This document shows positions 16,282 through 20,909 of a stretch of DNA of 61,235 nucleotides, one piece after another (within the stretch, counting starts at the first letter, position 1; each line of letters begins with the position of its first letter). The notes under the pieces are model-generated. The model searched no databases. It was given only the letters and a program-made list of their open reading frames with translations, and was not told the DNA's origin. Source of the stretch: Escherichia phage slur01; the sequence record NC_028831.1; one strand, given 5' to 3'. The translations under genes were made by a program, and so were the position numbers.

Positions 16282-16332
16282 TTATCAATCTATAATGGGC
16301 TCTACGGAGCCCTTAATTATCTGGAGGCTGTT

Positions 16333-17619: not shown

Positions 17620-18012
17620 ATGCTATTAGTCGTCACCGGAGGTCGAAATTTTAAGCATGTGGAGTATATTTATGCTCAATTGGATAAGCTGCATATGCAA
17701 AGAAGGATAACCACACTTCGCCACGGTGACGCTGACGGTGTTGACCGCATTTGTGCACAGTGGGCAGAGCGCAACGGTATTAAGACAGAAGCGTTCCCTG
17801 CCCCGTGGGACAATCTTTCCTTACCAAATACCAAGATACGGTATAACGCCAAGGGTGCTTATAATGCACAAGCTGGCGCATACCGTAACCAATTAATGCT
17901 GGATACTGATCCTAAACCAGATCACGCTATTGTGTTTCCTGGCGGAGCTGGTACTATGGATATGTACAGACGGATTAAAGCATCCGGTATCCATTACACA
18001 TTAGCGGAGTAA
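17620..18012 (+). CDS. SLOG/DUF2493-like Rossmann-fold protein
   Basis: Motif series VVTGGRNF, HGDADGVDR, WAERNGI, VFPGGAGTMDM resembles YpsA/DprA-LOG (SLOG) superfamily proteins. Confidence 0.45.
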   Translation: MLLVVTGGRNFKHVEYIYAQLDKLHMQRRITTLRHGDADGVDRICAQWAERNGIKTEAFPAPWDNLSLPNTKIRYNAKGAYNAQAGAYRNQLMLDTDPKPDHAIVFPGGAGTMDMYRRIKASGIHYTLAE

Positions 18013-18015
18013 ATA

Positions 18016-18486
18016 ATGGCTGACGTTAAAACTATTGTTGATGCAATGGACGAATCCAAAGACTGCCAACTGAAGAAGTCGTTTGAAGTAAAACAGGTTA
18101 CAGAGACTCAGTTGGTCTGTAATTTTGCGCGTTATTGTGGACTGGGGCGCGGGAAAGACTGGAACGGGCTTATTGTTATGCCCACATCACAAATCCTCGT
18201 TTACGTTCGCAATATTCTTGAGGATTTATTATATCTTCAGATTGATATCGGTGATGTAGAAATCAATATGACTGCGAGCTCTACCATTGTGGTTAAATGG
18301 CAGTCGGGCGAGACACTGCGTTTGGAAGCGTGCCATTGTGCTAAGAGCCTACACCACCTGCGCGGTTGTCATTACCAGTTCGTTGGGTTTGTACATCCGC
18401 AAGGGTTAAGCGAGCGTACGGCGCTTGTAGCGCGTTTGCTTCTGCGTCCTTATAATAACGAGCCGGAAGTTATATACGAGGCATAA
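18016..18486 (+). CDS. hypothetical protein
   Basis: 156-aa ORF; no motif recognised. Confidence 0.5.
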   Translation: MADVKTIVDAMDESKDCQLKKSFEVKQVTETQLVCNFARYCGLGRGKDWNGLIVMPTSQILVYVRNILEDLLYLQIDIGDVEINMTASSTIVVKWQSGETLRLEACHCAKSLHHLRGCHYQFVGFVHPQGLSERTALVARLLLRPYNNEPEVIYEA

Positions 18487-18487
18487 A

Positions 18488-18913
18488 ATGTCAGTAAATT
18501 TTGTCAAACAGCCAACTTTAAATACATGCGTTTCTGCGTGTTTGGCAATGATCCTTAATAAACCTGTCGAAAAGGTCATTAAGGAATTTCACAGTCGTTA
18601 TTATAACAACTGGGAAATCACTATCAGCGAATATTTGACTAAAAACGGCGTCCCGCATCATTGTTCAGAAGGTGGTGGGCGTGAAACTTTGCATATGGGA
18701 GGTTTGTTCCTGTGCACGGTGCCAAGTCTTAATATTCCTGGCGCATTGCACCAGATTGTGATTGATATGACAGATCACAAGTTTATTGTGCATGATCCAA
18801 TTAAAGGATGGGAAGGTAAAAAGTTCTATGTTGGTCCGGATCAAGATCCTGAAGAGCCTGGAGCTTTTATCATTCATACTTGGGTCAAAGACGTTGAAAT
18901 CCTGCCTTATTAA
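18488..18913 (+). CDS. Putative papain-like (C39-like) cysteine peptidase
   Basis: N-terminal QPTLNTCVSACLAMIL (Gln-Cys arrangement as in C39 peptidases) with a downstream His in FIVHDP. Confidence 0.35.
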   Translation: MSVNFVKQPTLNTCVSACLAMILNKPVEKVIKEFHSRYYNNWEITISEYLTKNGVPHHCSEGGGRETLHMGGLFLCTVPSLNIPGALHQIVIDMTDHKFIVHDPIKGWEGKKFYVGPDQDPEEPGAFIIHTWVKDVEILPY

Positions 18914-18975
18914 TTTTCTTGCTATCACATAACCCTTCATTGTATTGTGTACCCATCGAATAAGAGGGGTACACA

Positions 18976-19161
18976 ATGACCAAACTATACGCCGGATTGT
19001 TTTTATTTGCGACGTTGATGTTCGCTGGGCTTTATACCTATACAGTAGTCGAACAACCTTCCACGGTTATCCGAATCTTTGCAAGTACAGGGCTTTGCAT
19101 CTGTCTTATTCTATTTGTTTTATGCATTGTTATTATCCAAGACCAAAGGAAAATTAAATGA
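18976..19161 (+). CDS. Small membrane protein (two TM helices)
   Basis: Two hydrophobic segments separated by a short loop; RBS GAGGGG. Confidence 0.5.
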   Translation: MTKLYAGLFLFATLMFAGLYTYTVVEQPSTVIRIFASTGLCICLILFVLCIVIIQDQRKIK

Positions 19162-19622
19162 CCACAATTGCGTTTGATGGAAAAGTATTAGCTGCGGACC
19201 GTGGAGTTATGCGCGGGGAAGCTGTGACTGCTTATAAGAAAGTTCATAGCGTGAATGGACATCGTGGACGGTTTTTACTGGGCTTGTGCGGCCTTACAGC
19301 ATTTACCGATCAGGTGTTGCGTTATTTTAATAGCGCGGAACCTGTTAAGTTCCCTGATATTAAACTTTACAGCAAAGATGATGATTACGGGCAAACTTGC
19401 GGTCTTGCTGTCACTCCGGAAGGTACTTGCCATTTTATTTATAATGATGGTACTTTGAGCGAGCCCATGCTGGATGGATGGGGGTCTGAGGGTAGCGGTT
19501 GTGTGTTTGCTGCTGGCGCGTTAGCTGCTGGTGCAAGTGCGAGCGAAGCTATTGAGTTGGCAATTAAACACACCACATGCGCATTCCTGGGAGTTGATAC
19601 AATATCATTTGAGGGTTTTTAA
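19158..19622 (+). CDS. HslV/proteasome-like Ntn-hydrolase peptidase homolog
   Basis: Starts MTTIAFDGKVLAADRGV (Thr directly after Met, as in HslV TTIV...); GWGSEGSGCVFAAGALAAG parallels the HslV GSGG segment. Confidence 0.5.
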   Translation: MTTIAFDGKVLAADRGVMRGEAVTAYKKVHSVNGHRGRFLLGLCGLTAFTDQVLRYFNSAEPVKFPDIKLYSKDDDYGQTCGLAVTPEGTCHFIYNDGTLSEPMLDGWGSEGSGCVFAAGALAAGASASEAIELAIKHTTCAFLGVDTISFEGF

Positions 19623-19623
19623 A

Positions 19624-20115
19624 ATGGAATGGTCTTCCATATTCACTTATTTGGATGGAAAGCTGTTCTGGAAAACTTCTAGAGGTGGTAGAGTTATACC
19701 AGGAGCACTTGCTGGTCATGCTACAAAGAGGGGTTACGTCAAAATACGATGCGGTTGTAGTTTCTATCTAAGGCATCGTATAGTATGGGAAATGCATAAT
19801 GGTTCCATTCCCGAAAATATGCAAATAGATCATATTAATCACGTTCCTGGAGATGATAGGATAGAGAATCTTAGATTAGTTACAAGTACATTAAATAATA
19901 GGAACGTAACCAGATCTAAGCTTAATAAGTCTGGTGTTACTGGTGTTTGCTATCACAAAAGAAATAAAAGATGGATAGCTTATATTAATACACAGGTCGG
20001 TCAAGTAAGACTTGGCTCTTTTATTAATTTTGAAGATGCTGTCAATGCTCGTAAAAATGCTGAGATTGTATATGAATACCACGAGAATCATGGAACTGAA
20101 CGTAAGAGTTTTTGA
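19624..20115 (+). CDS. HNH homing endonuclease with C-terminal AP2 domain
   Basis: HNH core HRIVWEMHNG...IDHINHVPGDDRIENL followed by AP2 segment SGVTGVCYHKRNKRWIAYI...GSFINFEDAVNARKNAE; start re-picked at ATG with GAGGG RBS. Confidence 0.75.
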   Translation: MEWSSIFTYLDGKLFWKTSRGGRVIPGALAGHATKRGYVKIRCGCSFYLRHRIVWEMHNGSIPENMQIDHINHVPGDDRIENLRLVTSTLNNRNVTRSKLNKSGVTGVCYHKRNKRWIAYINTQVGQVRLGSFINFEDAVNARKNAEIVYEYHENHGTERKSF

Positions 20116-20884: not shown

Positions 20885-20909
20885 GACGGGGCGTTAGCCC
20901 CTTTTATTT
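20885..20909 (+). terminator. Rho-independent terminator
   Basis: GGGGCGTTAGCCCC hairpin followed by TTTTATTT. Confidence 0.55.

Follow-up and report, generated by a model that had tools for sequence, protein, structure and literature searches.

The DNA analysed here (the window) is a stretch of 61,235 nucleotides from Escherichia phage slur01 (NC_028831.1) and represents a near-complete Seuratvirus genome, with 95-98% nucleotide identity to Escherichia phages CAjan, Seurat, SHIN8, and the SLUR phages. A first-pass annotation had proposed a gene for a C39-like cysteine peptidase at 18488..18913 on the plus strand, and the ORF was placed exactly there. Its features are as follows.

18478..18481 (+): Shine-Dalgarno motif GAGG, 6 nt ahead of the peptidase ATG, read directly from the sequence.
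18488..18913 (+): C39-like peptidase ORF with ATG start, 141 codons, coordinates including the stop.
18509..18511 (+): codon of Gln8, the predicted oxyanion-hole residue, six residues ahead of the nucleophile; conserved in 150/150.
18527..18529 (+): codon of Cys14, the predicted catalytic nucleophile and first residue of model helix 14-23; conserved in 149/150.
18539..18541 (+): codon of Cys18, a non-catalytic Cys at position Cys+4; conserved in 139/150, otherwise T/S/A.
18749..18751 (+): codon of His88, the predicted catalytic base at the start of model strand 87-93; conserved in 150/150.
18794..18799 (+): codons of Asp103-Pro104, with Asp the predicted third catalytic residue in a D-P-x-x-G motif; D in 150/150 and P in 150/150.

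The protein begins with MSVNFVKQPTLNTCVSACLAMIL. The TAA of the upstream ORF (18016..18486) is located at 18484-18486, between the GAGG and the peptidase ATG, so that translational coupling between the two genes is likely. Pairwise dN/dS of the peptidase gene against diverged Seuratvirus orthologues is 0.09-0.15. In several Seuratviruses (KS_A3, Dru_SM1, and SHIN8 among them; L025-L028), an insert of approximately 205 bp, annotated as an additional small ORF, separates the peptidase gene from its upstream neighbour (phrog_25149). The corresponding junction in the window is 18486..18488, and the peptidase N-terminus reads MIKHVKQ in these insert-bearing phages versus MSVNFVKQ in slur01. The 5′ junction of the gene is thus a point of recombination or indels, and the coupling is not conserved.

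The residue counts given above derive from an alignment of 150 family representatives that share no more than 50% identity with each other. The Gln-Cys spacing of C39 active sites, which had been suspected at the N-terminus, is present as Gln8-x5-Cys14 and equals that of ComA Gln11/Cys17 (ComA sequence confirmed against PDB 8HF7); the candidate His further downstream is His88, which is followed by Asp103-Pro104. Among the reference domains, Gln8 aligns with Gln177 of StbD-CT/9L5U and with the Gln of ComA/LahT (bioRxiv 10.64898/2026.05.07.723447), and Cys14 falls on the catalytic Cys in each of ComA, LahT, and 9L5U. In HHalign comparisons, His88 is paired with the catalytic His of the reference domains, and Asp103-Pro104 is aligned to IADP (ComA), NDP (LahT), and YDP (9L5U, Asp275 of StbD-CT). 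The Q-C-H-D order is therefore the same, with Q8/C14/H88/D103 falling on the corresponding residues of ComA, LahT, and 9L5U by HHalign and hmmsearch. The D-P-x-x-G motif is common to C39 peptidases and C39 toxins. Other positions are specific to the phage family, namely F34-H35, Y74, the V78-P79-S80-L81-N82 motif (VPSLN) that precedes His88, and Y114. Position 87, immediately before His88, is variable (L57/M28/F22/T15/N15/A5 among the 150), as is position 15 after Cys14 (V73/T32/M14/A12). Translated in six frames, the window contains the motif Q-x5-C-x3-[CA]-[LIVM]-x-M a single time versus 0.03 times per shuffled window, and the full stop-free Q..C..H..DP arrangement occurs once versus 0.0 in shuffles. 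The Gln-Cys motif is no chance pattern.

A papain-like fold, as the first-pass annotation had supposed, was found: the alpha+beta structure of the phage protein superposes on solved C39 domains. The Pfam model for Peptidase_C39 (PF03412) scores below its gathering cutoff on the phage protein (14.1 bits versus 22, residues 3-25 only). This model matches 19 of the 59 homologues examined at E<0.1 (best 4e-4), and none of these is reported above threshold. Searches of PDB sequences with the single sequence and with the family profile returned no significant match, so homology is shown by structure and profile-profile comparison; the sole PDB sequence touched by the family profile, below significance, was 9L5U_A. 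No model for the family was found in NCBIfam or PADLOC, and a BFVD fold search matched uncharacterised phage proteins only. In PHROGs, the slur01 protein matches phrog_4049 (E 8e-58); all 59 members map to this group and 14 also map to phrog_5845, both labelled as of unknown function. The gene is a "hypothetical protein" in the phage records matched. The peptidase call itself is not new, since automatic annotation had already flagged two members: UniRef lists the Pantoea phage Vid5 protein as "Peptidase C39 domain-containing", and S0112_034 of Shewanella phage S0112 is annotated likewise. The family is not treated in the literature searched, and a 2023 survey of papain-like enzymes does not include it.

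The gene is present in 183 of 50,697 phage records by tblastn. Its carriers include Seuratvirus, Nonagvirus, Kuttervirus/Agtrevirus (Ackermannviridae), Vequintavirinae, Samunavirus, the Vibrio podoviruses around VP2/phiVC8, Pantoea phage Vid5, and Shewanella phage S0112. An exhaustive HMMER search against 1.84 billion cluster representatives gave at least 1,471 clusters at E<=1e-3, of which 775 reach E<=1e-10; with few exceptions, the proteins stand alone and are 135-160 aa long. A scan of 185,579 species genomes gave one match, in a Methylophaga MAG, which indicates that this is essentially a virulent-phage family; the genome, viral, and metagenome scans use one short peptide pattern, such that their low counts are lower bounds. 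Fusions are rare and involve unrelated small phage domains. Those seen in longer members (YunG-like, zinc ribbon, and MazG-like N-terminus) look like merged neighbours and were set aside as functionally uninformative. What is new is the delineation of this branch of the C39 superfamily, which is very large, specific to virulent phages, made up of stand-alone proteins, and invariant in its catalytic tetrad.

Characterized C39 peptidases of MEROPS family C39 and PF03412, such as PCAT1, ComA, and LahT, are domains of peptidase-containing ABC transporters, whereas the phage protein stands alone and has neither transmembrane nor ATPase domains. It also differs from these domains in having its own motifs (F34-H35, Y74, VPSLN, and Y114) and in the residue after the catalytic Cys, which is Val/Thr in the phage family and Gly in the C39 reference domains. 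No ABC transporter was found in the CAjan-type genome or in 19 or more family neighbourhoods, and the window has one ORF with a double-glycine leader (an antisense ORF) versus 1.3 expected. A classical PCAT peptidase is ruled out by the single domain, the absence of an ABC transporter, and the absence of leaders above chance. Taken together, Cys-[Val/Thr] rather than Cys-Gly and [Leu/Met/Phe/Thr/Asn]-His rather than Gly-His lead us to treat the phage proteins as a third, divergent branch of the superfamily.

The surroundings of the gene bring up a lysis role. The peptidase gene lies in a run of small ORFs directly upstream of the endolysin/holin/spanin genes and the terminase, 1.3 kb ahead of the lysis cassette in the window, and lysis genes are also nearby in five other neighbourhoods (L002, L007, L017, L020, and L046). 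An accessory part in lysis, acting on holin, spanin, or peptidoglycan, would fit this location, just as removal of double-glycine leaders would fit the function typical of C39 domains (PMC10318531). The marks of peptidoglycan-hydrolysing papain-like enzymes (structural similarity to NlpC/P60 or CHAP, export or cell-wall-binding features, and consistent placement in lysis cassettes) were not found for the phage protein, and we regard both the leader-processing and the lysis role as highly improbable.

Regarding expression, counts of consensus promoters and terminators were at background in our scans and gave no early or late signal for the peptidase gene. The 62-nt spacer that follows the peptidase gene contains a 12-bp perfect stem at 18943..18978 (+) (UUGUGUACCC..GGGUACACAA plus flanks; dG -20.1 kcal/mol, z -2.2). 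The Shine-Dalgarno motif and the first AUG bases of the next ORF (18976..19161), which encodes a 61-aa hydrophobic membrane protein, fall within this stem. No T-run follows this stem, such that it resembles a site of translational occlusion or RNA processing more than a terminator. The best two terminator-like hairpins between 13 and 22.5 kb are at 16297..16312 (+) (GGGCTC-TACG-GAGCCC) and 20888..20901 (+) (GGGGC-GTTA-GCCCC, then TTTTATTT). It is possible that these two bracket a transcription unit comprising ORF 16333 and the SLOG, C39-like, HslV-like, HNH, and endolysin genes. If this unit exists, peptidase and endolysin would share a transcript, and the peptidase gene would not be a classical early gene.

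The HslV-like gene that the first-pass annotation had pointed to downstream is real. It encodes a putative Ntn-hydrolase at 19158..19622 (+) that matches phrog_1040 ("peptidase HslV family", E 5e-32) and, at only 15.4 bits, the Pfam Proteasome model, and its N-terminus reads MTTIAF. Judged against E. coli HslV, the protein keeps Thr2, a Lys in YKKV, and a GSG motif, and by that measure it may be active as a threonine protease. The CAjan annotation lists no HslU-like ATPase. Upstream of the peptidase gene, at 17620..18012 (+), is a gene for a SLOG-superfamily protein (Pfam YAcAr/DUF2493, E 3.5e-18), which has been labelled variously as "GTP-binding domain", "putative DNA binding protein", and "phosphoribosyl transferase". 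Only in Seuratvirus and Vid5 does this gene accompany both the C39-like and the HslV-like gene; in Shewanella phage S0112, a DprA-like gene, also of the SLOG superfamily, is found 3 kb upstream of the C39-like gene.

The HslV-like gene has further peculiarities of its own. An HNH_3 homing endonuclease ORF at 19531..20115 (+) overlaps its 3′ end; of 33 related phages, only 4 carry this ORF, and the others align over 77-78% of the 2.6-kb query. In a 99%-identical metagenomic relative (L022, 6671..7141), the HslV-like gene has a different HNH endonuclease at its 5′ end, which takes over its ATG; the junction reads ...GGGGGTGGGTT ATC ACT ACT..., with Thr-Thr-Ile preceded by ATC and not by ATG. This gene seems to be an insertion hotspot for homing endonucleases.

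Proximity of the two protease genes had led to the suggestion of a small proteolysis module. In such a dedicated two-protease module, possibly including the SLOG/YAcAr protein, one protease might activate the other or both might share a substrate. In Seuratvirus, Nonagvirus SE1, and Pantoea phage Vid5, the C39-like proteins of which share just 33-38% identity, the C39-like, HslV-like, and usually SLOG genes do occur on one strand within approximately 1.5 kb, and the residues kept by the HslV-like protein would suit a functional partner. However, these three are related 60-kb deazaguanine-DNA siphoviruses, such that the synteny may simply be inherited, and gene order and intervening genes differ among them. 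The adjacency does not extend further. No HslV-like or SLOG homologue was found within 6 kb of the peptidase gene in 14 or more other lineages, including Kuttervirus, Agtrevirus, Samunavirus, Enhodamvirus, Henunavirus, Mydovirus, S0112, and all the other sampled metagenomic lineages, and only 38 phage records (Seuratvirus and kin, and Providencia phages) contain the HslV-like gene versus 183 for the peptidase gene. Clustering of neighbours across 19 lineages gave no family besides the peptidase in more than five; the commonest neighbour was holin, consistent with chance proximity to the lysis cassette. One apparent conserved neighbour "family" turned out to be an antisense ORF of the peptidase gene itself. 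The peptidase gene is an autonomous accessory gene, and a module with HslV is at best lineage-specific. A dedicated module is thus quite improbable as a general explanation, and this independence from HslV is also new.

With an unchanged papain-fold catalytic set, the phage protein might not be a peptide-bond endopeptidase but an isopeptidase or deconjugase (acting on ubiquitin-like or other immunity tags), a deamidase, or an acyltransferase. Clan-CA relatives of these and other types, including the pseudomurein endoisopeptidase PeiR, staphopains, YopT/PfhB2 (C58), and Josephin/UfSP/ZUFSP, differ from the phage protein in being larger and in having extra subdomains, and with the exception of PeiR, they score below C39 domains against it. 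Both the leader peptidases and the toxins of the C39 type give higher scores, with alignments that span the full catalytic set. Models in PADLOC and NCBIfam give no hint of a deconjugase-type role, no ubiquitin-like gene or conjugation system is linked to the peptidase gene, and the gene context gives no support for the substrates of the other clan-CA enzymes (cell wall, host GTPases, or ubiquitin-like tags). We consider an activity of this kind improbable.

The C39 toxins bear most directly on a possible substrate. Cpe1, delivered by a type VI secretion system (T6SS), and StbD-CT, of a CDI system, kill bacteria by cleaving GyrB/ParE in the conserved LHAGGKF loop of the ATPase domain, at the scissile site HAGG|K (PMC12136450; bioRxiv 10.64898/2026.05.07.723447). 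The 9L5U structure represents a Cpe1-type homologue, and 9L5U_A is closely related to the StbD-CT peptidase (E 4e-33), for which structures 8SSM and 8SSK are available. The catalytic set of StbD-CT is Gln177/Cys183/His258/Asp275, with Cys187 being non-catalytic (bioRxiv 10.64898/2026.05.07.723447); this layout corresponds to Gln8/Cys14/His88/Asp103 and Cys18 of the phage protein. The putative link of the phage family to GyrB/ParE-cleaving toxins is likewise new. The toxins differ in forming the C-terminal part of PAAR/Rhs/VgrG/CdiA carriers, and they come with an entry domain, an autoprocessing site, and an immunity gene next to them. In the neighbourhoods examined, the phage family has no carrier or entry domain, no autoprocessing site, and no conserved downstream immunity gene, and the genes downstream vary by lineage (the 61-aa membrane protein, SLOG, the topoisomerase II medium subunit, and others). 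A polymorphic-toxin module is ruled out on these grounds. Furthermore, the Pfam models C39 and C39_2 match the toxins and not the phage family, and the toxins have GH at the catalytic His and CG at the nucleophile, whereas the phage family has [LMFTN]-His and C[V/T].

On this basis, the phage enzyme might cut host GyrB/ParE at HAGG|K, as Cpe1 and StbD-CT do, and thereby halt supercoiling and segregation of the host chromosome. This explanation is unlikely, although several observations are consistent with it. The one PDB sequence touched by the family profile belongs to a relative of the gyrase-cleaving StbD-CT, and the catalytic layout is common to both, including the Cys at Cys+4. In Ackermannviridae, the peptidase gene is located between the genes for the large and medium subunits of topoisomerase II, with its ATG 1 base past the large-subunit stop and its end overlapping the medium-subunit start. 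The Ackermannviridae enzyme reads LYAGSNF at the loop position, without the scissile Gly-Gly, and in these phages the protease would be expressed together with a phage topoisomerase II that resists cleavage and takes over. However, topoisomerase II of the T4/eukaryotic type is not known to carry HAGGK anyway, such that LYAGSNF does not discriminate. This synteny is also restricted to one phage family and could be chance inheritance. Most carriers, including the slur01 Seuratvirus, encode no topoisomerase and might need host gyrase.

At the sequence level, all links between the phage family and the toxins are weak. The preference of the profile for toxins over PCAT domains is marginal, and the toxin and PCAT alignments behind it have little depth (Neff about 2). 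The Gly before the catalytic His of StbD-CT, the backbone of which touches the GyrB loop (bioRxiv 10.64898/2026.05.07.723447), is absent from the phage family, with L/M/F/T/N at position 87. Precedents for phage inhibition of host gyrase are Igy (LUZ24) and Gip (CGP3), both phage-encoded inhibitors (PMC10886550). These are also small accessory phage proteins directed against a host type II topoisomerase, but they are non-enzymatic binders and are unrelated to the phage peptidase in sequence and fold, such that any link is hypothetical. We similarly see only a small chance that the minimal protease of these Gammaproteobacteria phages would act as an intracellular "toxin without a delivery system", through irreversible cleavage of GyrB/ParE. 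If GyrB/ParE were the target, the enzyme would be the first host-takeover factor to act on DNA topology by proteolysis. It would also connect phage accessory genes with interbacterial toxins, as a weapon converged on or exchanged, and would point to a validated antibacterial target site.

The Ackermannviridae genes also revealed an annotation problem. In Salmonella phage aagejoakim (MT074474.1, Kuttervirus; L003, 3474..3923), the GenBank CDS aagejoakim_166 starts at an internal Met (MSACLAM...), a choice that drops the Gln and the catalytic Cys. The true start is the ATG one base past the topoisomerase II large-subunit stop (MVLNPLVHQKQPTGNTCMSACLAM...). The Kuttervirus annotation in GenBank thus cuts off the active site of the peptidase. 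The peptidase ORF is embedded between the two topoisomerase II subunit genes in Agtrevirus (L049) as well.

Of the original proposal, the C39-type fold and catalytic set stand, while the two-protease module is at best lineage-specific. The phage protein is very probably an active papain-fold protease of the C39 type. In our preferred reading, the product of the slur01 gene is likely a cysteine endopeptidase of the C39 branch that consists of a single domain, is catalytically competent, works in the cytoplasm, acts autonomously, and likely targets a host protein. This reading rests on the fold, the catalytic residues, their conservation, the autonomy of the gene, and its distribution; activity, cytoplasmic location, a host-protein target, and a Gly-Gly preference are its predicted components. 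As an enzyme of papain-like clan CA, it would use Cys14 as the nucleophile and His88 as the base, with Asp103 orienting His88 and Gln8 serving the oxyanion hole. The catalytic residues start at residue 8 and leave no space for a signal peptide, so the enzyme presumably acts in the cytoplasm. Since its carriers have unrelated structural and replication modules and share no nearby gene, the substrate is unlikely to be a phage protein conserved among them. The most economical target would be a conserved protein of the host, and its cleavage may serve host takeover or counter-defence. Because characterized C39-superfamily enzymes cleave at Gly-Gly (PMC12136450; PMC10318531), a preference for small residues at P1/P2 is the default expectation, and cleavage probably occurs at a small-residue site of the Gly-Gly type.

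A single small gene thus defines a family with an invariant catalytic centre in many unrelated virulent phage lineages, among them Kuttervirus, Seuratvirus, and Nonagvirus phages that infect E. coli and Salmonella. Phage-encoded proteases are almost unexplored, head-maturation proteases aside. If the enzyme cuts a conserved host protein, it would represent a new type of host-takeover or anti-defence effector, and also a compact and probably specific protease for biotechnology.
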